Translations under genes and position numbers: made by a program
From: Zymomonas mobilis subsp. mobilis ATCC 10988
Lineage (GTDB): Bacteria > Pseudomonadota > Alphaproteobacteria > Sphingomonadales > Sphingomonadaceae
Direction of reading: 5' to 3'
DNA: 32,000 bases
Assembly (NCBI RefSeq): GCF_000175255.2
Contig: NC_017262.1
Location: 660,001 to 692,000, forward strand
The notes under the pieces: model-generated
Database searches by the model: none
What the model was told of the DNA's origin: nothing
Seen by the model: only the letters and a program-made list of their open reading frames with translations
Part shown: positions 9,590 to 30,003 of the stretch, piece by piece
Layout of the letters: every line of letters begins with the position of its first letter
Position numbering within the stretch: position 1 is the first letter of the stretch

Positions 9590-11116
9590 CTATAAAAATT
9601 CGACCACTTCGCTGGCTTCAAAACTATTCGCCAAAGACCGCAATCGGCGCAGGACGGTCTCGCCTTTTAATTTATAATTACCGGAAAATTGCAGGATAAT
9701 TTTGTTATTCCGATAAAGAATAGTGCTTTTTTTCAGGCTAGTCGTTACACCGCCTGACAAACGCATACCCAAACGAATGGCTTTACCCCAACGCACAGCG
9801 CGGATCGTATCCGCTTCACTCAACAAATTATTAGTGATTTTCTTATCCATTGCACCGTCATAGCTGACGGCTAAAGCCTGACCGATCAAAGCCCGTCCAT
9901 AGGCATCCAATCCGACCCAACGCCCATGTAGAATAATACTCAAAATTTGTTCAGCCCGAAAATCGGGATTAGCCTGCCAGGCGCTATCTGCCAATAAACA
10001 AGCCGCATGACGTAAACGGTGATAAGCGGGCGGATCTTGAGCAAAAAGGGTCGACATCCAATCGTAAAGCGCCTCACCCTGCTGATAAAAACGACCTGCC
10101 GTTTCACCGCGCTGATTGGCACTCCATAAAAGCGGGTCTAACTTGCGGGTTGCCTTATCAAGGCTAAGATAGAGCAAACCTTCCCTTAATCCATAAGCCG
10201 AAGTCACCAAGGCTCGGCTATGAAGATGACGGCTCACCACGGCTAACAACGCAGCTGCATCCGAAAGCTGCTCGACACGCGAAGTTGAAATATTCGCCTT
10301 ATTTTTCAACTTCTTGGGACTATTGCGCTGAATAACCCGTATCAATTTGGAAGGTCGATCGGGCGACATGATATAATTATGTAAAACAGGGATCGGATAA
10401 TGCCTGACATGCATATCCAATTTAGCCAAAGACCGCCAAGCGCCGCCGACCATATAGAAAGGCAAATCGCGGGCATCGGCCAGCCAATCAATCTTCTTAA
10501 AGGCTTCCGATATAAAGTTATCCAAAGCATTGCGGCTTTTTTTACGAATATCCGCAATTCTTAAAACACCCAAGGGCAAAGAAACTCTGTCCTTCACCCG
10601 CCCTTTCGATATACGGATCAGTTCAAGACTACCGCCACCCAAATCGCCAACAATTCCGTCTGCATCGGGGATAGCGGACAAAACGCCATAACCGGAAGCA
10701 TAGCCCTCTTCTTCGCCCGACAAGACTTCAACTTCTAGCCCGATTTTGGCTATTTCACCGAGAAGGAAAGCTCCATTTTTAGCATCTCTCACCGCGGCTG
10801 TCGCAACCGTTCTAAGAGAGCTAAGTTCCATAATTTGCGCTAATTTCCAAAAACGCGTTAATTCGGATATTGCCAGCTCAATCGCTTTTTCATCAATTCG
10901 GCCATCTACTGGAATATTGCGGCCTAATTGGGCTGAAATCTTTTCATTGAACAGGATTCTCGGGGCGCGACTTAACTGGTCATACACCACCAGACGGATG
11001 GAATTAGAACCAATATCAATGATACCGATAGGTCCCGATTTGCACCATTTTTTCTGTTTCGGCATCGGGCATTTTTTATCCACGTCGTTCGATCCCTGCC
11101 TGTTATTCAATATCAT
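9590..11116 (-). CDS. ppx: Exopolyphosphatase (Ppx/GppA family)
   Basis: IGIIDIGSNSIRLVVYD and DLGGGSLEL are Ppx/GppA ASKHA-fold phosphate-binding motifs. The start is uncertain; an internal ATG at 11065 or a GTG a few codons upstream of it are alternatives. Confidence 0.9.
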   Translation of the reverse strand: MILNNRQGSNDVDKKCPMPKQKKWCKSGPIGIIDIGSNSIRLVVYDQLSRAPRILFNEKISAQLGRNIPVDGRIDEKAIELAISELTRFWKLAQIMELSSLRTVATAAVRDAKNGAFLLGEIAKIGLEVEVLSGEEEGYASGYGVLSAIPDADGIVGDLGGGSLELIRISKGRVKDRVSLPLGVLRIADIRKKSRNALDNFISEAFKKIDWLADARDLPFYMVGGAWRSLAKLDMHVRHYPIPVLHNYIMSPDRPSKLIRVIQRNSPKKLKNKANISTSRVEQLSDAAALLAVVSRHLHSRALVTSAYGLREGLLYLSLDKATRKLDPLLWSANQRGETAGRFYQQGEALYDWMSTLFAQDPPAYHRLRHAACLLADSAWQANPDFRAEQILSIILHGRWVGLDAYGRALIGQALAVSYDGAMDKKITNNLLSEADTIRAVRWGKAIRLGMRLSGGVTTSLKKSTILYRNNKIILQFSGNYKLKGETVLRRLRSLANSFEASEVVEFL

Positions 11117-11282
11117 GAAAAATCCGTTTTAAAGGGTCACTAGGACATAAAACTGGCCGCTAGGCAGGGAAAAACCTCCCTAATCCTATAATGCTCTTAT
11201 CCTATCACAGAAAAAAATCATTCCTTTTTATAGAAATATCGCCAGCCCATTATTAAAAAACAACAGGCTGGCTTATTCCATG

Positions 11283-13436
11283 CTAGATCTCTTCTCTAAG
11301 CTGCAATTTCGGAATTTTATTTTCAATCAAGGCCGTGCCACGCCCTGACAAGGATGGATTGGTCATAAAATAATGATGCAGATTGAACAAATGTTCGGGG
11401 TCTTTAATGCGTTCATAGCGGCCATCTGGTAACAAACGCCAACTCTGTTCGCTATCCAATAAATTGGCGACCATAATCTGATCTAATACCTGCGCATGAA
11501 CGGTCGGATTTTCGATCGGAACCAAAGTTTCAACGCGCCGGTCAAAATTCCGCTGCATCCAGTCAGCCGATGAAATAAAGACCAAGGCATCTTTATGGGG
11601 CAATCCATGTCCATTCCCGAAACAGACAATCCGGCTATGTTCCAAAAAGCGCCCGACAATAGATTTTACCCGAATATTATCGGACAACCCTGGCACTTGA
11701 GGCCGCAAGCAACAGATACCACGGACAATAAGGTCAATATGAACACCAGCCTGAGATGCCCGATACAGGCTTTCAATAATGGCCGGATCAACCACTGAAT
11801 TTAATTTAGCCCAGATGACACCCGGCCGCCCTGCTTTGACATGCTCGATTTCAGCATCAATCAACTTCTGTAATTTATCCCGCAAACCATGCGGCGACAA
11901 AGACAACATTTCAAGATGCGGCGGCTCGACATAACCGGTGACATAATTAAAAAGCTGGGCGGCATCACGCCCTGCCCGCTGATCGGCGGTAAAGAAACTC
12001 AAATCAGTATAAATACGCGCCGTTACCGGATGGTAATTGCCGGTTCCGAAATGGCAATAGGTGCGATAACTGTTGCCTTCGCGACGAACAACCATCGAAA
12101 CCTTGGCATGGGTTTTCCAGTCAATAAAGCCATAGACAACCTGAACCCCTGCCCGTTCCAATTGGGTCGCCCATTTCAAATTCTGTTCTTCATCAAAACG
12201 GGCTTTCAACTCAACCAAGGCCGTTACCGATTTCCCCGCATCAGCCGCGTCAACCAGCGAGCGAATAACCGCGGATTGTTTACCAGCGCGGTATAATGTT
12301 TGCTTGATAGCCACGACATCGGGATCGGCGGCTGCTTGCTGTAAAAAGGCCAAAACGACGTCAAAGGTTTCGTAGGGGTGATGGACGATGATATCTTTTG
12401 CGCGAATAGCTGCGAAGCAGTCGCCGCCATATTCCATAATCCGTTCGGGAAATCGAGGCGTGAAAGGCGCGAATTTTAAATCCGGCCTCTCTTCTTCCAC
12501 CATTCGACTTAAATCAGAAATAGCGAGGAAACCGCTGCTCTGGAATAAAATTGCATCACCGCTAATCTCATCACAAACCAGTTTTTCCAAATCCGGCGGC
12601 ATATCTTTTTCCATTTCCAGCTGGATAACACGCCCTTTGCGGCGCATTTTCAACGCAGAATGGAAAGACAGAACAAGATCTTCGGCCTCTTCCTGAAATT
12701 CGATATCACTATCACGGATAAGACGGAATGCACCGTGACTGATGACATCAAAACCGGGGAAAAGAATAGAAACAAAACGCCGGATCAAGGTCTCAATCGC
12801 AACATAACGCGCCGGATTTTGCGGTGAACTGGCACCAGAAGGTAAACGGATAAAACGCGGCAAGGTCGACGGAATCATCAATAATTCACGCACCGGAATT
12901 TTATCAACCTGCCGCACCAGATCAAAAACAAGGCTAAAGCCTTTATTCGGAATAAAGGGGAAAGGATGCGCTGGATCAAGCGCTTGCGGTGTCAAAACCG
13001 GAAAAACCTGTTCCCGAAAATGATTTTCCAAAATTTCGGCATCTTCGCCGTTAATTTCGTCGATATTCAACACTTGAATACCAACGGTTTTCATCTCTTC
13101 ACGCAACGACAACCAACATTCTTGCTGGCTTGCCATCAATTCGCGGGTGCTCTCTGTCAACGCCGCTAATTGCTGACCAATCGTCATACCGTCATTGGAA
13201 TACGCATTCAGGCTTTGCAGTTGCTGGCCTTTTAATCCGGCCACGCGAACCATGAAAAATTCATCAAGATTATTGCCGGAAATAGACAGGAAACGTAACC
13301 GCTCCAATAACGGATGAACCTTGTTGCCAGCCTCTTCAAGGACGCGATGATTAAAGGACAACCATGACAATTCCCGATTAAAAAAACGTTCATTCAGAGG
13401 TAGTTGGGCAATAAGGGACATATTATTTTCTTTCAT
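11283..13436 (-). CDS. ppk: Polyphosphate kinase 1
   Basis: 717 aa. FFNRELSWLSFNHRVLEEA is the canonical PPK1 N-terminus. WKTHAKVSMVVRRE contains the autophosphorylated-His context, and there are two PLD-like C-terminal domains (FLEHSRI). An alternative start is the sixth codon (ATG 13421). Confidence 0.95.
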   Translation of the reverse strand: MKENNMSLIAQLPLNERFFNRELSWLSFNHRVLEEAGNKVHPLLERLRFLSISGNNLDEFFMVRVAGLKGQQLQSLNAYSNDGMTIGQQLAALTESTRELMASQQECWLSLREEMKTVGIQVLNIDEINGEDAEILENHFREQVFPVLTPQALDPAHPFPFIPNKGFSLVFDLVRQVDKIPVRELLMIPSTLPRFIRLPSGASSPQNPARYVAIETLIRRFVSILFPGFDVISHGAFRLIRDSDIEFQEEAEDLVLSFHSALKMRRKGRVIQLEMEKDMPPDLEKLVCDEISGDAILFQSSGFLAISDLSRMVEEERPDLKFAPFTPRFPERIMEYGGDCFAAIRAKDIIVHHPYETFDVVLAFLQQAAADPDVVAIKQTLYRAGKQSAVIRSLVDAADAGKSVTALVELKARFDEEQNLKWATQLERAGVQVVYGFIDWKTHAKVSMVVRREGNSYRTYCHFGTGNYHPVTARIYTDLSFFTADQRAGRDAAQLFNYVTGYVEPPHLEMLSLSPHGLRDKLQKLIDAEIEHVKAGRPGVIWAKLNSVVDPAIIESLYRASQAGVHIDLIVRGICCLRPQVPGLSDNIRVKSIVGRFLEHSRIVCFGNGHGLPHKDALVFISSADWMQRNFDRRVETLVPIENPTVHAQVLDQIMVANLLDSEQSWRLLPDGRYERIKDPEHLFNLHHYFMTNPSLSGRGTALIENKIPKLQLREEI

Positions 13437-13617
13437 CCATTAAGCGGAAAAGAACCACTGGCAGCTATCTCGACAAAAACGATCAGGCGCTTTCTCAACT
13501 TTGTATAGTGACAGATCTGATTTTCGAATCAACTCTATCAAAGATATGTGATATTTTTATAAAACCGCTTTTCTTTCTTCCGGTTGCCCCATAACGACAA
13601 AAAAAGACGACCCCGAA

Positions 13618-23299: not shown

Positions 23300-23491
23300 T
23301 CAAGGTAAGTCGCCGTAAAGCGCATAACTATAGAAGAGGTCAGCCCGCATAATAATTTCAACAGAATCGCCGCCAAGATCAATAGAACGATCGAGCCAAT
23401 AGCTTCTATGCTCAACAAGTTGATTTTTTAAAGTGCGGTCGGCTTCAAGACGAAGGTTTTCTGCATAGTTAACTTCTTTTTTATTTTCCAT
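23300..23491 (-). CDS. Hypothetical small acidic protein (63 aa)
   Basis: The only ORF of 60 aa or more in the 334-bp gap after the peptidase gene. It is divergent from the XRE regulator. The Shine-Dalgarno sequence is weak (TAGGG) and I recognise no family. Confidence 0.4.
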   Translation of the reverse strand: MENKKEVNYAENLRLEADRTLKNQLVEHRSYWLDRSIDLGGDSVEIIMRADLFYSYALYGDLP

Positions 23492-23666: not shown

Positions 23667-24134
23667 ATGCCCTCCCCATGTAACAAACTGAAATTATTGC
23701 GAAAAGCGGCCAAGCCTCCGATCACGATCAGAGCCTTAGCTGAAGCCATAGACATGCCTGCTTCCAGCTATGCCTTTTATGAAGATATGAATCGTTTCAA
23801 GAAAAAATATCTGCCCTTGGAATTGACCCGAAAAATAGCCGCCGTTTTAATGAATCACCAAATCAACCCAGAAGACATTTTGGCACTTTCCGGCCTGACC
23901 AGTTATGAATTAAAAACCGAAATCTCGGCCATCCGGCAAATCATGCCCCCCATACAATTTGTAAAAATGAATATGGCGTTACCCAATGAAACGCTGCTGG
24001 CCGAAATGTTTGAAGACTTGCTGGCCGATCTTGACCTAAATGCCCCCAAAAAGGAAATCGCCTATAATCTGGCACAACATCTGCCAGAAGCCCTTTCCGA
24101 GACCGCCCGAAAAATCCCTGATAAAATCCACTAA
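23667..24134 (+). CDS. XRE/Cro-CI-family helix-turn-helix transcriptional regulator with uncharacterised C-terminal half
   Basis: NKLKLLRKAAKPPITIRALAEAIDMPASSYAFYED fits the HTH_XRE pattern (helix, turn, recognition helix). I could not assign the C-terminal ~90 aa. I prefer ATG 23667; the ORF track starts at TTG 23628. Confidence 0.65.
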   Translation: MPSPCNKLKLLRKAAKPPITIRALAEAIDMPASSYAFYEDMNRFKKKYLPLELTRKIAAVLMNHQINPEDILALSGLTSYELKTEISAIRQIMPPIQFVKMNMALPNETLLAEMFEDLLADLDLNAPKKEIAYNLAQHLPEALSETARKIPDKIH

Positions 24135-24686: not shown

Positions 24687-24763
24687 GCCCCCGTAGCTCA
24701 GTAGGATAGAGCGACGGTTTCCTAAACCGCAGGCCAGAGGTTCGAATCCCCTCGGGGGCACCA
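24687..24763 (+). tRNA. tRNA-Arg (anticodon CCT), CCA encoded
   Basis: Manual cloverleaf: acceptor GCCCCCG/CGGGGGC, D arm GCTC-AGTAGGATA-GAGC, anticodon loop TTCCTAA, T loop TTCGAAT, discriminator A plus CCA. There are two A-C mispairs (27:43 and 51:63). Confidence 0.85.
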
Positions 24764-24879
24764 TCTTTTGATAAAAGCCTTTAATTTTCTCAAAAGTCTT
24801 TCCATTTAAAATTATTCTTTTTTGAACGCAGAATATCCCCCTTTTCTTTTCTTCAAAACCGACCATCCTTTTTTCTTTG

Positions 24880-24908
24880 TTGCCTATAAAGACAATATGT
24901 CGGATAAT
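24880..24908 (+). promoter_or_regulatory. Putative sigma70-type promoter of the large helicase gene
   Basis: TTGCCT (24880-24885), a 17-nt spacer, then GATAAT (24903-24908). This predicts a ~75-nt leader before GTG 24990. Confidence 0.4.
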
Positions 24909-24989
24909 TCGATCTCTTCTCAAGAATAGCTTTGAAATAAATCACTTTCTTTACTGAAACAAAAACGAATAAAAACGGATAGTCTTGGC

Positions 24990-27900
24990 GTGATAAAGAA
25001 AAACGAGCGACCTTATTCCCATTATTCCCTCTTACGGCTCAAAAATCTTTATCAGGAAAACCCTAGAAATCCGCATATTCTATCGCTTATCCACGATGAA
25101 CTAGGCTATAGAAACAGCGATTTCGCACAGGATTTAATCCAAAAAATCGAATGGGCTATTCAAAAAATAGACCGAGACGCCACTCAAAAAGAAGCCAGCT
25201 TTTCTTTTTTTGAAGAAGAAAAACCCCTTTCTCAAAAAGGGAATAAGAAATTTAACCTACTGGATAAATTGCTGCATTTCTTGCCCAGTTTTAAGGCTAA
25301 AAAAGCCAATGAACCCGCGGCTATTCTCGCGACATGGACAGCCGAAGAAGCGCTTTCACCTCAGACCTACCGCAATCCCGAAGATTTAGCCTCAGGCGAT
25401 AAAAAAGCGGTCGCCTCACTAACAAGAGCACAGCTTCCATGGGAAAATCGCGAAAGCCTGCCCCCTAAAAAAAGGCTCTATTATCAGATTATTCTTGGCT
25501 CTATCCCCATGCAGGAAGCAACAGAAAAACTGATCCAGCTTTTTGGCAAGGATGAAGAAACACGACAAAGAATAAAGGAAAAATCGGCTATTGCCGCTAT
25601 TCTCGTCGATGATCGCGGTTTTCTTGTAGAAGATAACAATGTTGCCATTTCCAGCTTTGCATGGGCGTTACCGCAAGCCTTAAAGGGAAAACTCGATATT
25701 CTAGGGGCTTGGCCGGATATCGAACCCCAAGTCACCGAATATCTCACCACTATCCTCCAGAATAACGGCACAGACGGGAAAAAGCAGCCTCTCGACAGAG
25801 GTATTTTGGAAGAAGCCTTTCAATGGATAACGGAACAATTTGGCTTGCCTTCCGATCTTATCGAAGCACCCAGCTTTGCGCTTCGGATCTACCACCCGTT
25901 GTCATCAGACAAGCCCCCGCAAGCTACGCTTCTTAATTCCTTTTTCTTGGGGGATCTTGCGCTGGCACGCAGTCTTCTTCAGCAGGGAAAGGCCAATTCC
26001 AGCCTAATCTATTATCTCGGTGATAAAAAAGCCGAAAATATTTTCAATTTGCTTACCGATCATGATGCCGTTGAAAAAGCCGTTTCGCCTGCCCTAATGC
26101 CGATCGCCCGTTGGCCTTCCGCTGGCGGTCATGCTCTGGTGCTATTGCAACAAGCCGCCGTTAATCTAACCCGTGACCAATTACAGGAAAAAGACGGCAT
26201 CATCGCCGTTAATGGGCCCCCGGGGACAGGGAAAACAACCTTACTTCGGGATGTTATTGCGGCAGCGGTGGTCGATCGCGCCACGGCCATGGCCGAATTT
26301 GATGACCCAGAACACGCCTTCATCCCGACTGGTAAAAAAATAACGATGGGCGAAAAGGCGTTTTTCCATCTTTACCGCCTCGACCCGTCGATCAAAGGGC
26401 ATGAAATTATTGTTGCTTCCAGTAATAACAAGGCGGTCGAAAATATCAGCCAAGAATTACCGGCTATAGAGGCTATTGGCCGCTCAACAGAAGAATTAAA
26501 CTATTTCCGTAGCATCAGCGATCAACTCCTCAACCCGCAAAGCTATTTTGAAAAAAATAACAGCGCAGATGATAAAAAAACGGAAAATAACAAAAGCTGG
26601 GGGTTAATCGCGGCCGCTTTGGGCAATGCCAAAAATCGACATCAATTTTTGCAAAGTTTTTGGTGGGATCAAGAATATGGTTTCAGAAATTATCTGAAAG
26701 CGGCTCGGGGCGATAAAGTCGTTCTTCCTACCCGAAATCCAACAACAAAACAGGTCATCGGTGAGCATCAACCCGCTATTGTCGAAGCCGAAAATCCCCC
26801 TTCCCCCCAAGAGGCCAAGACCCGTTGGCAAAAATCCCGAATTCACTTCAAAAACCTCAAAAATGAAATTGAGACGGAATTAAAAGACCTCCATACGGTG
26901 CGACATATCGTTCAGGAGATAACAAAATTACGCAAGCCGCTCACCGAAAGTGAAACCGCTTTTTCGCATCTGCAACGCCTTACAACCCAAGCCAAAGATC
27001 ATCACCGCTATTGCTTTAAACAACAGGCAAAAGCCAAAGCTATCCATGAAGGCGCGCTGGAAAATATAGCTCGCCATCAAAGCGAACGACCTTGGATATT
27101 TGCCCGCTGGTTCAAAACCAAAGGCTGGGAAGCATGGCTCCAAGCCTATACACGATTGGAACTTCTCGCCTCTCGTGCCGAAATTGACGAAAAGCTTGCC
27201 GATCAATCTTATAGTGAAGCAGCCCAGTCATTAGAAAAGCTACAATCTGAATATGAAGCACAAAAAAAACAGCTTGAACATTTGCAGCGGAAGCTTGCCG
27301 ACTACAATAATCGGATAGCGCCTTATCGTGCGTCTCTTGGCGATAGAATTATTGACGATTCATTTTTCAAAAAAAGCCATGAAGAGATCAATCTTACTTC
27401 CCCATGGCTCCCCGACAGCTTGCATCGGAAAAGAGAAGATCTTTTTATTGCGGCTCTGAACCTTCACCATGCCTTTATCGATGCTTCTGCACAAAAATTT
27501 CTACATAACCTAAGCATCTTCATCAAAATCTTCTCCTCAGGTTCGCCTTCGAACGAAGATGAAAAACAATATCTCGGCGACCTATGGTCAAGCCTATTCA
27601 TGGTCGTTCCCGTCATTTCAACCACCTTTGCCTCAATAGGCCGTATGCTGGGTAACCTTCCGCCTAATAGTATTGGCTGGCTTCTGATTGATGAAGCAGG
27701 ACAAGCCGTGCCACAAGCCGCCGCAGGGGCAATTCTGTGGGCAAAGCGTTCAGTCGTCGTCGGCGACCCTTTGCAAATCCCCCCCGTCGTTTCTTTGCCG
27801 GAGCAACTGACCTCCAAGATTTGCCAATTTTTCAAAGTTGATAAATCAATCTGGTCAGCGCCAGATGCTTCAGCGCAAAGTTTGGCCGATCAAGCCTCCA

Positions 27901-28565
27901 ATTTCCAAGCTGTCTTCAATTCGGATCAGGATGGTCGCCGCGTTGGCATCCCTTTATTGGTGCATCGACGCTGCCAGAATCCGATGTTCGAGATTTCAAA
28001 CCGAATTGCTTATGACAACCAGATGGTTCATGCTGCTGGCAATCCCTCCATTGGTGCTATCGGCAAGGTAATTGGCCGATCCCGTTGGCTGGATGTAAAA
28101 GGTGAAGCAGATACCAAATGGTGCGAAGCCGAAGGCCAAGTTGTTATCGATTTTCTAGAAAAGCTGGCAGCAGCAAGCATAACCTCCCCCGATTTATTTA
28201 TCATTACCCCCTTTCGCATTGTCTCAAGCGAATTAAAGCTGCGCCTTAGCCAAAAATCGAGCCTACTTGAAAGACTCCAAATCAAAAATAGTGAATGGAT
28301 TAGAAGCCATATTGGCACAGTTCATACATTTCAGGGGAAAGAAGCGGATTCTGTTATTTTGCTACTAGGGGCTCCTGCGAATAATCAAAACGGTGCGCGC
28401 CGCTGGGCAGCCGAAACGCCAAATATTTTTAATGTTGCAGTATCACGAGCCAAGCAGAATATTTACGTCATTGGCTCTTATGATGCATGGGCAAAAGTTG
28501 GTTATACACAAGATATTGCACATAGCCTGCCCTGTAATCGTAGCAATAACAGCCCTGCGGCATAA
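24990..28565 (+). CDS. Large (1191 aa) Upf1/DNA2-like superfamily-1B helicase (AAA_11/AAA_12-type core) with an uncharacterised N-terminal domain and a long coiled-coil insertion
   Basis: GTG start; there is no in-frame ATG for about 170 codons. Helicase motifs: Q-like LLQQAAVN; I GPPGTGKT (aa 409-416, nt 26214-26237); Ia VASSNNKAVENI (475-486); TTFAS (878-882); II DEAGQ (901-905, nt 27690-27704); III VVVGDPLQIPPV (922-933); IV HRRCQNPM (992-999); V VHTFQGKEAD (1111-1120); VI NVAVSRAK (1148-1155). I could not assign aa 1-385 or aa 487-871. Confidence 0.85.
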   Translation: MIKKNERPYSHYSLLRLKNLYQENPRNPHILSLIHDELGYRNSDFAQDLIQKIEWAIQKIDRDATQKEASFSFFEEEKPLSQKGNKKFNLLDKLLHFLPSFKAKKANEPAAILATWTAEEALSPQTYRNPEDLASGDKKAVASLTRAQLPWENRESLPPKKRLYYQIILGSIPMQEATEKLIQLFGKDEETRQRIKEKSAIAAILVDDRGFLVEDNNVAISSFAWALPQALKGKLDILGAWPDIEPQVTEYLTTILQNNGTDGKKQPLDRGILEEAFQWITEQFGLPSDLIEAPSFALRIYHPLSSDKPPQATLLNSFFLGDLALARSLLQQGKANSSLIYYLGDKKAENIFNLLTDHDAVEKAVSPALMPIARWPSAGGHALVLLQQAAVNLTRDQLQEKDGIIAVNGPPGTGKTTLLRDVIAAAVVDRATAMAEFDDPEHAFIPTGKKITMGEKAFFHLYRLDPSIKGHEIIVASSNNKAVENISQELPAIEAIGRSTEELNYFRSISDQLLNPQSYFEKNNSADDKKTENNKSWGLIAAALGNAKNRHQFLQSFWWDQEYGFRNYLKAARGDKVVLPTRNPTTKQVIGEHQPAIVEAENPPSPQEAKTRWQKSRIHFKNLKNEIETELKDLHTVRHIVQEITKLRKPLTESETAFSHLQRLTTQAKDHHRYCFKQQAKAKAIHEGALENIARHQSERPWIFARWFKTKGWEAWLQAYTRLELLASRAEIDEKLADQSYSEAAQSLEKLQSEYEAQKKQLEHLQRKLADYNNRIAPYRASLGDRIIDDSFFKKSHEEINLTSPWLPDSLHRKREDLFIAALNLHHAFIDASAQKFLHNLSIFIKIFSSGSPSNEDEKQYLGDLWSSLFMVVPVISTTFASIGRMLGNLPPNSIGWLLIDEAGQAVPQAAAGAILWAKRSVVVGDPLQIPPVVSLPEQLTSKICQFFKVDKSIWSAPDASAQSLADQASNFQAVFNSDQDGRRVGIPLLVHRRCQNPMFEISNRIAYDNQMVHAAGNPSIGAIGKVIGRSRWLDVKGEADTKWCEAEGQVVIDFLEKLAAASITSPDLFIITPFRIVSSELKLRLSQKSSLLERLQIKNSEWIRSHIGTVHTFQGKEADSVILLLGAPANNQNGARRWAAETPNIFNVAVSRAKQNIYVIGSYDAWAKVGYTQDIAHSLPCNRSNNSPAA

Positions 28566-28715
28566 GCGGCATAAACTGTCGTTATTCTTCATGCCTTCAG
28601 ATTAACGCATGCCGAGACATCGCTAAGTTAGCTGGCTGATTCCTAAGAACCTGATTTCGCCTCATCTTAGGTGATACTCAAAATATCTGGCTGTTTAGAT
28701 ATTGTGTTTAAGACA

Positions 28716-28748
28716 TAAAAAAACAGCCATTACTAAAAAGTAAGGCTG
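28716..28748 (-). terminator. Rho-independent terminator of tRNA-Val (minus strand)
   Basis: On the minus strand, CAGCCTTACT-TTTT-AGTAATGGCTG (one bulged base) is followed by TTTTTTT (the A-run at 28716-23 on the + strand). It begins 28 nt downstream of the tRNA-Val 3' end. It may also stop read-through from the helicase gene. Confidence 0.7.
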
Positions 28749-28775
28749 CTTGCTTCACTCCAAGAAGGAGAAGAT

Positions 28776-28850
28776 GGTGGACGCGGCAAGGATTGAACTT
28801 GCGACCCCTGCGATGTCAACACAGTGCTCTACCACTGAGCTACGCGTCCT
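28776..28850 (-). tRNA. tRNA-Val (anticodon GAC), CCA encoded
   Basis: The reverse complement folds cleanly: GGACGCG-TA-GCTC-AGTGGTA-GAGC-A-CTGTG-TTGACAT-CGCAG-GGGTC-GCAAG-TTCAATC-CTTGC-CGCGTCC-A-CCA. Confidence 0.92.
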
Positions 28851-28862
28851 CCGTGGAAGCGG

Positions 28863-28891
28863 CTTCTATGGGTAAAACGTTTCTCATGCAA
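28863..28891 (-). promoter_or_regulatory. Putative sigma70-type promoter of tRNA-Val
   Basis: On the minus strand: TTGCAT (28891-28886), a 17-nt spacer, then TAGAAG (28868-28863), 12 nt before the mature 5' end. Confidence 0.35.
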
Positions 28892-29084
28892 GCCTTTTTT
28901 TATATTTTTTTGAAAAAAGATATAAATTTTACGTCCTATGAGAAAATACTCCTTATAATTAGGGGATTTTTTTGATCTTCTTAAAAAATCAAAAACCTTG
29001 TTTCCATTAATCTCCATCATAAAAAAATCTTGGAATTTTTTTCCTCTCTATTTCTACAGAGAATCATCCCCGTTGATTCCTCTG

Positions 29085-29148
29085 GGAAAAGACCGCTTAG
29101 AGCAAAGCGATCTTTTCCTTAAAATAATTCTCTCAAGAGAATTATTTT
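29085..29148. repeat. Two adjacent strong hairpins/palindromes in an otherwise gene-free AT-rich spacer
   Basis: Hairpin 1: GGAAAAGACCGCTT (29085-29098) pairs with AAGCGATCTTTTCC (29104-29117), 14 bp with one mismatch. Hairpin 2: AAAATAATTCTCT (29121-29133) pairs with AGAGAATTATTTT (29136-29148), 13 bp perfect with a 2-nt loop, and a T-run follows on the + strand. Confidence 0.6.
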
Positions 29149-29277
29149 TGGCGTTACCAGCAATATAAAAATGCAATCGCCAATTAATTACAAATAGCAA
29201 ATATCATTATTGTAATATTTAAAGAAAATTACTTGAAATTAGATCAATCAAAATAAATATATAGCACAAGGAGGAGA

Positions 29278-30003
29278 GTGAAGAAGGAAATATTGATGCG
29301 TATTCTTGCCAAATCTATAGCATTAGCTATTCTAACAACCACCCCGATCTTGGCGGCAACTACAACAACATCACCTTTGCATTCTGTCCATACGAAATGG
29401 GAAGAGCATAAGGCTGACCGCGCTTTGGATCATCTTTCCCAGTCCGGACAATATGCAATGGTCGATATTCTGCAGGCCAAGCATATTTTAGATTCTGGAG
29501 AAAGTGCATCAGCCTTACCTTTGCTACTTCGCGCATCAAAACGCCTTGTCGCTGCTGGCAATGATCGTCAAAAATTCATCGCAGCAGAAAGTGACTTGCA
29601 TCCCGTTCCTCAACATCCGGCTTCATCTTCTCACACACCTATAATTGAAAAAACGGCATGGATTCCTGTCGGCGGTGAATTTATTGTTGGAGAAGAACTG
29701 GCTCCAGAAAAGAAAACCGCTATTGCGACAGCCAATAGCCAACTCAAATCAGGCCAACGACAAGAAGTTGTGGAAACCATGAAGGTTGTCGGAGAAGATA
29801 CTGATTTTATTGTGGCTCTTGCCCCCTTGGCTCAAACACAAAAGGCTATAAATCAAGCTATTGCTCTAGCTAAAAGCAATAAATCTCAAGAGGCGTCACA
29901 GGTTATCGATCATGTGATGGATAGCCTTGTTTTTATATCGGATAACGATGTTGAAACCATTATTCCAACAAGCAAGCATGCCTCAACTCCCCATAAGAAA
30001 TAA
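29278..30003 (+). CDS. YfdX-family periplasmic protein
   Basis: Signal peptide MRILAKSIALAILTTTPILAA. LSQSGQYAMVDILQAKHILDSGE and LAPEKKTAIATANSQLKSGQ...ALAPLAQTQKAINQAIALAKSNKSQEA parallel the E. coli YfdX blocks as I recall them (ISEQGLYAMRDVQVARLAL; TPEKEAAIKIANEKMAKGD...MPLKQTRNALADAQKLL). GTG 29278 has AAGGAGGAG just upstream; ATG 29296 is an alternative start. Confidence 0.7.
   Translation: MKKEILMRILAKSIALAILTTTPILAATTTTSPLHSVHTKWEEHKADRALDHLSQSGQYAMVDILQAKHILDSGESASALPLLLRASKRLVAAGNDRQKFIAAESDLHPVPQHPASSSHTPIIEKTAWIPVGGEFIVGEELAPEKKTAIATANSQLKSGQRQEVVETMKVVGEDTDFIVALAPLAQTQKAINQAIALAKSNKSQEASQVIDHVMDSLVFISDNDVETIIPTSKHASTPHKK

Follow-up and report, generated by a model that had tools for sequence, protein, structure and literature searches.

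A window of 32,000 nucleotides from the chromosome of Zymomonas mobilis subsp. mobilis ATCC 10988 (contig NC_017262.1, positions 660,001–692,000; coordinates without a locus number refer to this window) was analysed around a gene that lies between a tRNA-Arg and a tRNA-Val gene. The interval contains one functional gene, which encodes a stand-alone Upf1-like helicase of superfamily 1B (SF1B) from a rare and mobile bacterial family. The protein is identical to AEH62431.1/WP_014500598.1 of this strain and orthologous to ZMO0695 of strain ZM4. Its sequence characterizes it as a putative defence-type helicase which lacks a nuclease and has a new N-terminal domain. The features of the interval, together with the next gene downstream, are:

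24687–24763, + strand: tRNA-Arg gene, anticodon CCT (ARAGORN; Rfam RF00005, 64.7 bits), 3′ end toward the helicase gene
24880–24908, + strand: sigma-70-like hexamers TTGCCT-17-GATAAT, 82 nt 5′ of the GTG start, a weak match at 9 of 12 positions
24990–28565, + strand: helicase open reading frame (ORF), 1191 residues, GTG start, Upf1-like SF1B
28565–28583, + strand: weak terminator-like hairpin immediately 3′ of the stop codon (pattern scan; 7 pairs, 3 of them GC)
28775–28849, − strand: tRNA-Val gene, anticodon GAC (ARAGORN; Rfam RF00005, 67.6 bits), 3′ end toward the helicase gene
29278–30003: YfdX-family gene

An earlier reading of this DNA, made from the letters alone (the sequence-only reading), had described two convergent tRNA genes with their 3′ ends facing inward and a single gene between them. 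ARAGORN and Rfam bear out the first point, and the second holds as well, as the remaining ORFs of the interval are short antisense shadows. The GTG start is backed by the conservation of R7 and P8 among homologues. The promoter that had been assigned to the gene did not stand up. Sites of the TTGCCT-17-GATAAT type occur five times in the region compared with 7.8 ± 2.6 times in shuffled sequences, and because matches at 9 of 12 positions are no commoner than in the shuffles, the hexamers are no evidence for a promoter. Terminator-like hairpins number 12 in the region and 6.4 ± 2.8 in shuffles; the reading of the hairpin at 28565–28583 as a terminator is only suggestive.

The gene and its flanks had also been called AT-rich. 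This is correct for the intergenic flanks (GC content 0.30–0.40), and AT-richness is usual for intergenic DNA. It is not correct for the gene itself, for which the GC content of 0.461 lies within half a standard deviation of the value for 3.6-kb windows taken over the whole window (0.471 ± 0.021); its third-position GC content (GC3, 0.434) is inside the range of the neighbours. The tRNA–tRNA interval contains no integrase or recombinase gene, the helicase being its only long ORF, and the region shows no att-like direct repeats: the sole similarity between the two tRNA genes is the generic D-arm. Between tRNA-Val and the YfdX-family gene lies a 430-bp intergenic region (28850–29277) which is very AT-rich (GC content 0.297), has several A/T tracts and shows promoter-like and terminator-like matches on both strands.

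Architecture of the predicted protein

An AlphaFold2 (AF2) model of the whole protein (37 homologues) reached a predicted local distance difference test (pLDDT) score of 86.4 and a predicted template modelling (pTM) score of 0.79. It shows two RecA domains with an insertion in the first (RecA1), preceded by a long N-terminal region. The following parts are distinguished:

24990–25193, + strand: residues 1–68, three-helix element (secondary structure and pLDDT)
25290–26144, + strand: residues 101–385, family-specific alpha/beta N-terminal domain (N-domain; pLDDT mostly above 85)
26145–26789, + strand: residues 386–600, first part of RecA1 with Walker A, motif Ia and beta elements of a 1B-type insertion
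26790–27389, + strand: residues 601–800, antiparallel coiled-coil hairpin formed by helices 606–697 and 711–786 (AF2, pLDDT above 90)
27390–27794, + strand: residues 801–935, helical stalk and second part of RecA1 with motifs II and III; AAA_11
27795–28499, + strand: residues 936–1170, RecA2 with motifs IV–VI; AAA_12

All seven motifs of the SF1B set, which the sequence-only reading had called complete, are in place:

GPPGTGKT, residues 409–416
SSNNKAVEN, residues 477–485
DEAGQ, residues 901–905
GDPLQIPPV, residues 925–933
HRRCQNP, residues 992–998
FQGKEAD, residues 1114–1120
NVAVSRAK, residues 1148–1155

They are more than 90% conserved in an alignment of 71 homologues. Pfam recognizes AAA_11 at residues 874–934 (59.6 bits, cut-off 27) and AAA_12 at residues 1041–1163 (47 bits, cut-off 27). 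The best Foldseek match of the model in the PDB is Senataxin (8ftm, E = 1.5e-14); Upf1, IGHMBP2, Dna2, Sen1, Aquarius and ZNFX1 are also matched, at E-values of up to 2e-7; the entries 8ftm, 6ej5, 4b3g and 5ean are within E = 1e-14 to 1e-10. Pfam and Foldseek matches together agree with the initial classification as Upf1/DNA2-like. From motifs and model we place the protein in the Upf1-like branch of SF1B, and its ATPase/helicase core is intact and most like those of Senataxin, Upf1, IGHMBP2 and Dna2.

A Pfam search revealed no recognizable nuclease domain, with no PLDc match at E ≤ 1, and the H.K....D motif of phospholipase D (PLD), or HKD motif, does not occur anywhere in the protein. Both scans thus confirm the earlier view that PLD or another obvious nuclease is missing. 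The protein ends about 20 residues past motif VI, without a C-terminal effector domain.

The helicase had been described as ‘split’. According to the model, the split reflects the insertion that Upf1-type helicases normally have in RecA1 and that is enlarged to a coiled-coil hairpin in this protein. The arm, about 180 residues long and inserted in RecA1, has its two helices between motif Ia and motif II, and Pfam gives only chance matches of the coiled-coil type for it. Its apex (residues 698–716, local sequence SERPWIFARWFKTKGW) is conserved, with R700-P701 and W716; the family consensus RPGFFARLFRT..W..W is aromatic and basic, and P701 is conserved in more than 90% of sequences across phyla. 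By analogy with the hinges of SMC and Rad50, this suggests an interaction or dimerization site.

About two thirds of the protein had resisted assignment to any family. For residues 487–871 this no longer applies, as they occupy the usual insertion site of Upf1-type helicases in RecA1, whereas residues 101–385 still match nothing. The libraries searched were PADLOC-DB v2 (2023), NCBIfam 2026, Pfam-A of 2025 and PHROGs. For the N-domain the best E-value in Pfam was 0.099, NCBIfam and PADLOC gave no match before residue 341, and PHROGs gave none. A profile search against PDB sequences reached E = 0.54 at best. A Foldseek search of the PDB, run separately with a dedicated model of residues 101–385 (pLDDT 80), gave no significant match (best E = 0.94), and neither did Foldseek against BFVD (best E = 0.15).

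The N-domain is conserved from Proteobacteria to Actinobacteria and Firmicutes. Residues retained across phyla are W116, E120, P124, P150, W151, G170, G210, W225, S317, F318, D322, Y342 and W375, mainly Trp, Pro and Gly; the polar ones are E120, S317, D322 and Y342 only. Since these do not resemble a known nuclease site, we infer that the N-domain is a sensor or regulatory module. A profile of the domain found 2309 cluster representatives among 1.84 billion proteins, 361 of them at E ≤ 1e-30. It stands at the N-terminus in essentially all matches listed and no match is longer than about 1290 residues, which indicates that it is dedicated to this helicase architecture. The three-helix element ahead of it is followed by a linker predicted to be disordered (residues 66–100; secondary structure and pLDDT) and is present in about half of the family, the gap fraction being about 0.5 over residues 1–100 of the 71-sequence alignment.

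Inheritance in Zymomonas and distribution of the family

The gene is present in all Z. mobilis strains listed, and all 26 members of the 90% identity cluster of the protein are from Zymomonas. A second, divergent Z. mobilis subspecies (GCA_006715975.1) has the same order of tRNA-Arg, helicase and tRNA-Val. Shared upstream of it are purM-purN-dapB-nth-recX, the genes for an AMP-binding protein and an S9 peptidase, ORFs of 63 and 155 codons and an SMR gene; YfdX-OsmC-gyrA follow downstream in both. Amino acid identity between the two genomes is 74% for the helicase and 85–97% for core neighbours; the S9 peptidase (70%) and YfdX (71%) resemble the helicase in this respect. The ratio of non-synonymous to synonymous substitution rates (dN/dS) is 0.07 for the whole helicase and 0.04–0.17 in each of five regions, among them the N-terminal domain and the coiled coil.

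Because the two subspecies share the locus and dN/dS is 0.07, the gene is old, vertically inherited, fixed and functional in Zymomonas. A pseudogene or relic is ruled out by this ratio, which is low in all regions. A recent tRNA-targeted island is also ruled out, as there is no integrase, there are no att repeats, the composition is normal and the locus is shared by two subspecies. The ‘islet’ of the sequence-only reading thus does not exist as a recent acquisition in Zymomonas. Vertical conservation with core-like composition, which that reading had named as the outcome that would speak against it, is what we find at the level of the genus.

The synonymous divergence (dS) of the helicase between the subspecies is about 2.2, which is saturated and exceeds that of purM (0.7), gyrA (1.1) and the GFO gene (0.5); it is near the values of the S9 peptidase (1.6) and YfdX (1.9). 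Differences in codon usage or an old allelic replacement at the locus could account for it. In the second subspecies the gene (L004: 10001–13456) is called 40 residues shorter, with 1151 residues, and the in-frame translation upstream of the called start does not follow the conserved N-terminal pattern RPY..S...L. A further cluster member from Z. mobilis (P0276) is only 1018 residues long. The shorter versions may be start-site miscalls or may reflect N-terminal damage in some strains. The two small ORFs between the S9 peptidase and SMR genes (23300–23491, − strand, 63 residues; 23667–24134, + strand, 155 residues) have no Pfam match and are 95% and 85% identical between the subspecies.

Fixation in all listed strains at a locus shared with a second subspecies, strong purifying selection and a GC content at the genome average are what would be expected of an accessory helicase without a role in immunity. 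Such a protein might remove R-loops in the manner of Senataxin, relieve transcription–replication conflicts or act in RNA quality control; Zymomonas would retain it in the chromosome much as a housekeeping gene, and defence genes near its relatives would be incidental to mobility. The absence of a nuclease and of a partner gene (see below) is in line with this explanation, and so is the fact that Senataxin/Sen1 and Upf1 are the closest solved structures. The faster divergence of the helicase between the subspecies than that of core neighbours does not fit it well, and neither does the distribution of the family.

In a word-indexed search, relatives numbered more than 3600, and the best 120 of them are full-length (about 1000–1250 residues), 45–56% identical and known by generic names only; their sources are Bradyrhizobium, Rhodospirillum, Agrobacterium, Brevundimonas, Sphingomonas, Brenneria, Gilliamella, Desulfovibrio and many metagenomes. 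In a set of 185,579 species genomes, with one genome per species, at least 447 relatives were confirmed. They are spread over more than 10 phyla and occur in Alpha-, Beta-, Gamma- and Deltaproteobacteria, Acidobacteria, Verrucomicrobia, Bacteroidota, Firmicutes and Actinobacteria. Only two of 5426 complete Escherichia coli genomes carry the family; the homologue in one of them, E. coli H6 (WP_073464713.1), is 46% identical to the Zymomonas protein from end to end. A family so rare and patchy is difficult to reconcile with general housekeeping.

The Zymomonas protein is 46–47% identical to homologues from Proteus, Pseudoxanthomonas and Curvibacter and 39% identical to that of Sphingomonas sanguinis. 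Horizontal transfer is indicated because gamma- and betaproteobacterial homologues are closer than that of S. sanguinis, against the taxonomy. At least 23 plasmids have a copy that aligns over 80% or more of the query. Both this disagreement with taxonomy and the plasmid-borne copies argue against an accessory helicase, and sequence comparison marks the family as rare, patchily distributed and horizontally mobile. Location next to a tRNA gene was considered as a family trait and rejected, since of 60 other loci just 4 have a tRNA gene at a distance of up to about 0.5 kb, at most a weak enrichment; the one Sphingomonas homologue examined (L025) has no tRNA gene nearby and different neighbours. 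A full-length member with 44% identity is found at positions 10001–13546 of OK490421.1 (L087), an unannotated 45.5-kb record entitled ‘UNVERIFIED: Klebsiella phage Kp4866-6’. This copy may be a prophage moron, or the record may be a mis-delimited chromosomal or plasmid segment.

Neighbouring genes and the proposed function

ORFs were called in 81 loci of the family and the resulting 1257 proteins were clustered. There is no conserved partner gene, because the most widespread neighbour family, with the helicase itself excluded, reaches only 7 of the 81 loci. Together with its solitary position between the tRNA genes of the window, this supports the description of the helicase as a stand-alone gene.

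Several neighbours nevertheless belong to known defence systems. In Pseudoxanthomonas a complete Shango system (SngA, SngB and SngC, 224–831 bits; L008: 3167–9874) lies 51 bp upstream of the helicase. Shango genes are also present at L056: 13121–19430, L036: 7424–9619, L033: 14802–17051 and L042: 18910–20922. Altogether, Shango, complete or in part, stands beside the helicase in at least six loci, from Pseudoxanthomonas, Gluconacetobacter, two Verrucomicrobia, a deltaproteobacterium and E. coli H6. In the latter, Shango is again complete (L088: 20485–26318; SngA 340, SngB 618 and SngC 938 bits), and the helicase is located between it and Hachiman (HamA/HamB; HamB 780 bits) in an island rich in integrases and insertion sequence (IS) elements, where it adjoins a DUF4238 gene. 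The orientation of Shango relative to the helicase is variable, either co-directional, as with the 51-bp gap, or convergent.

The adjacency could reflect plain defence-island clustering or a functional link. If the link were obligatory, the helicase would be an accessory or partner of Shango (a TerB protein, an ATPase and a helicase), or of another multi-gene system, and would have no function alone. The recurrence of Shango genes within about 0–2 kb in at least six unrelated loci (L008, L033, L036, L042, L056 and E. coli H6) is what such a dependence would produce. About 90% of the loci, that of Zymomonas included, have no Shango nearby, however; the relative orientation is not fixed, and purifying selection persists in Zymomonas without Shango. 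We consider this explanation very improbable.

Other systems are found at single loci or in small numbers. The PADLOC candidates PDC-S41 and PDC-S28 are adjacent in Novispirillum (L016) and Breoghania (L011), respectively, and a second Mko-like helicase is adjacent in Puia (L014). Type I restriction–modification (R–M) subunits are near the helicase in L047, L066 and L069. Further neighbours match AbiEi/AbiEii, LmuB, JetA/JetC, PDC-S06, PDC-S33, DUF4238, AAA_15 and a zeta toxin. On a Klebsiella pneumoniae IncF plasmid the helicase lies among IS elements, a pair of HNH and ATPase genes, a DUF4145 gene and Hxs genes. A neighbour in L035 (14351–16279) which PADLOC identifies as DpdF with 706 bits was rejected, since according to Pfam it is RecQ, with RQC, HRDC and RecQ zinc-binding domains. 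On the Agrobacterium vitis plasmid pAvCG412 (L086: 3377–7720) a DUF6088 gene and a pair encoding an ATP-binding protein and an S8 peptidase precede the helicase, an arrangement which resembles ATPase–protease conflict modules.

The expectation that relatives are mobile and often lie in defence islands is supported by the plasmid copies and by the Shango, Hachiman and R–M cases, which are raw cases without a background comparison. Repeated adjacency to Shango, Hachiman, R–M, AbiE and PDC systems in unrelated taxa also speaks against an accessory helicase outside immunity, in favour of which the many homologues among metabolic genes can be cited. Taking the evidence of all sections together, we regard an accessory helicase of this kind as unlikely, although it is the most serious of the rivals.

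We propose that this family of stand-alone Upf1-like helicases serves in surveillance or in defence against phages and plasmids, with one protein sufficing, and would give this proposal an even chance of being right. In this scheme the N-domain, possibly with the coiled-coil apex, would sense an invader-specific protein or nucleic-acid structure, or would hold the motor in an auto-inhibited state. Once engaged, the motor would move along single-stranded RNA or DNA in the 5′→3′ direction at the expense of ATP; its substrates might be intermediates of replication or transcription, or R-loops. By stripping or unwinding these intermediates it would block replication or gene expression of the invader, and would do so with no cleavage at all or by making the nucleic acid accessible to host nucleases. 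The protein would act like the helicase half of Mokosh (see below), minus the PLD effector. A more far-reaching version is somewhat doubtful and is put forward tentatively: an unnamed, nuclease-free form of single-protein immunity, in which a Upf1-like motor gated by a new sensor fold (residues 101–385) and a coiled-coil arm disables invader intermediates by translocation alone, perhaps together with Shango where the two are adjacent, and which has become fixed in the small genome of Zymomonas.

A number of observations weigh against a role in defence. The Zymomonas gene has the character of a core gene: both subspecies have it at one and the same locus, its composition is normal and hallmarks of mobile genetic elements are absent; its neighbours SMR, YfdX, OsmC and gyrA are housekeeping genes, and no defence gene adjoins it within the window. 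Many relatives, too, are found among housekeeping genes, such as those for DAHP synthase, catalase, cytochrome bd, ribonucleotide reductase and glycosidases. A defence gene occurs within three genes of the helicase in about one-fourth to one-third of the sampled loci, and these are summary counts without a background comparison. PADLOC matches to helicases alone can overcount defence genes, as the RecQ case in L035 illustrates. The protein has no recognizable effector, the conservation of the N-domain shows no sign of a catalytic site, and any way in which a helicase alone might confer immunity is speculation. No paper on the family was found: among searchable papers none mentions ZMO0695, nor Mokosh in Zymomonas.

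If the family does defend alone, a Upf1-type helicase would give immunity without an attached nuclease, and a conserved domain of about 285 residues without a Pfam entry or a detectable structural relative would receive a function. Zymomonas mobilis is an industrial organism, the engineering of which is limited by barriers to foreign DNA (PMC8432527). ZMO0695, carried by every listed Z. mobilis strain, is a candidate for such a barrier.

Comparison with known systems

The sequence-only reading had found that the protein matches no known system. This remains true in so far as there is no full match in PADLOC-DB v2, NCBIfam, Pfam or PHROGs, and the family is unnamed in PADLOC-DB of 2023, NCBIfam 2026 and Pfam-A of 2025. 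A domain-centric screen of 2026 makes no mention of Upf1, AAA_11 or AAA_12. The helicase module, however, is closest to MkoC of the Mokosh system, which is the best PADLOC model (E = 3.1e-72, 242 bits), followed by MkoA. The alignment covers residues 387–1167 of the protein and positions 253–947 of the 1136 profile positions, leaving 948–1136 unmatched, and only 24 residues of the protein follow the aligned stretch; true members of other PADLOC families score 590–1050 bits here. The homologue of E. coli H6 is also best matched by MkoC (E = 3.9e-63).

Mokosh is defined by a COG1112/Upf1-like helicase, and in type II an N-terminal helicase is joined to a C-terminal PLD nuclease. Mutants in the PLD active site lose defence, and the ATP-binding site of the helicase is required as well (Millman et al. 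2022). The proposed immune role of the Zymomonas helicase is linked to Mokosh because MkoC is the best model and Mokosh defence needs the ATP-binding site of its helicase. The protein is not an MkoC, because the match is limited to the helicase and PLD, a defining feature, is absent; the partial profile match and the missing PLD/HKD rule membership out. Since Mokosh defence is lost when the PLD active site is mutated, the Mokosh mechanism is not available to a protein that lacks PLD. Mokosh type I (MkoA and MkoB) was rejected too: there is no Pfam match to a kinase or to PLD, and the neighbours in the window are tRNA genes, SMR and YfdX.

The similarity might alternatively mark a degenerate or split Mokosh, that is, a type II MkoC-like helicase which has lost its C-terminal PLD and whose nuclease is encoded elsewhere or replaced by the N-domain as effector. 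That MkoC is the best match of both the Zymomonas protein and its H6 homologue, and that a Upf1-like helicase defines Mokosh, would follow from such an origin. The low score, the partial coverage of the profile, the end of the protein shortly after motif VI and the absence of a PLDc match at E ≤ 1 and of the HKD motif speak against it. In addition, no PLD neighbour recurs in the 81 loci and the N-domain lies outside the MkoC alignment. We judge a degenerate Mokosh to be quite improbable.

With MkoC and MkoA the protein shares a Upf1/COG1112-type SF1B helicase core and the occurrence of family members in defence islands; MkoC is likewise a single gene, and both proteins have about 1100–1200 residues. 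Unlike MkoC, the Zymomonas protein has neither the C-terminal PLD nuclease nor its HKD motif, and it has an N-terminal region of 385 residues without a counterpart in the MkoC model as well as a long coiled-coil arm. It differs from Mokosh type I in the lack of a serine/threonine kinase domain and of a neighbouring MkoB. Going by nothing but the helicase match, profile-based tools may call the protein ‘Mokosh type II’, a name that would mislead.

The architecture had been considered unlike that of any known system, but a coiled-coil insertion after Walker A has also been described for CnuH of the CoCoNuT systems. Compared by description (PMC10542128), the two proteins share a Upf1-like SF1 core, a large helical coiled-coil insertion after Walker A and an insertion of the OB/stalk type, and both have family-specific N-terminal domains. 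A downstream gene for CnuE, a winged helix-turn-helix nuclease, accompanies that of CnuH in almost all cases, as do those of the McrBC-type CnuB/CnuC, and often TerY-P is present too (Bell et al., PMC10542128). In the 81 loci there are no conserved neighbours of the CnuE or McrB/McrC type, and in the window a tRNA gene is downstream. The N-domain gives no SmpB-like or RelE-like match with Foldseek.

Nhi, Hhe, ProA and the helicase-like protein PLuB, which are other helicase-based defence systems of one protein, are, as here, large single polypeptides with an SF1 helicase core. Their matches to the Zymomonas protein are weak and local, at motif II/III or the P-loop, over 30–270 residues (E = 1e-10 to 4e-3), with scores far under the curated cut-offs; their defining nuclease or DUF4011 domains are absent.

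With the eukaryotic helicases Senataxin/Sen1, Upf1, IGHMBP2, Dna2, Aquarius and ZNFX1 the protein shares the fold of RecA1 and RecA2 and the insertion in RecA1 (E = 1e-14 to 1e-7), at an identity of only 10–20%. It has no CH domain, no Dna2 nuclease and no N-terminal HEAT domain as in Senataxin; only the bacterial family has the coiled-coil hairpin and the N-domain. Should the family defend alone, the link proposed between bacterial Mokosh-type helicases and the RNA-surveillance helicases of eukaryotes (Upf1, Senataxin, MOV10 and ZNFX1) would become sharper.

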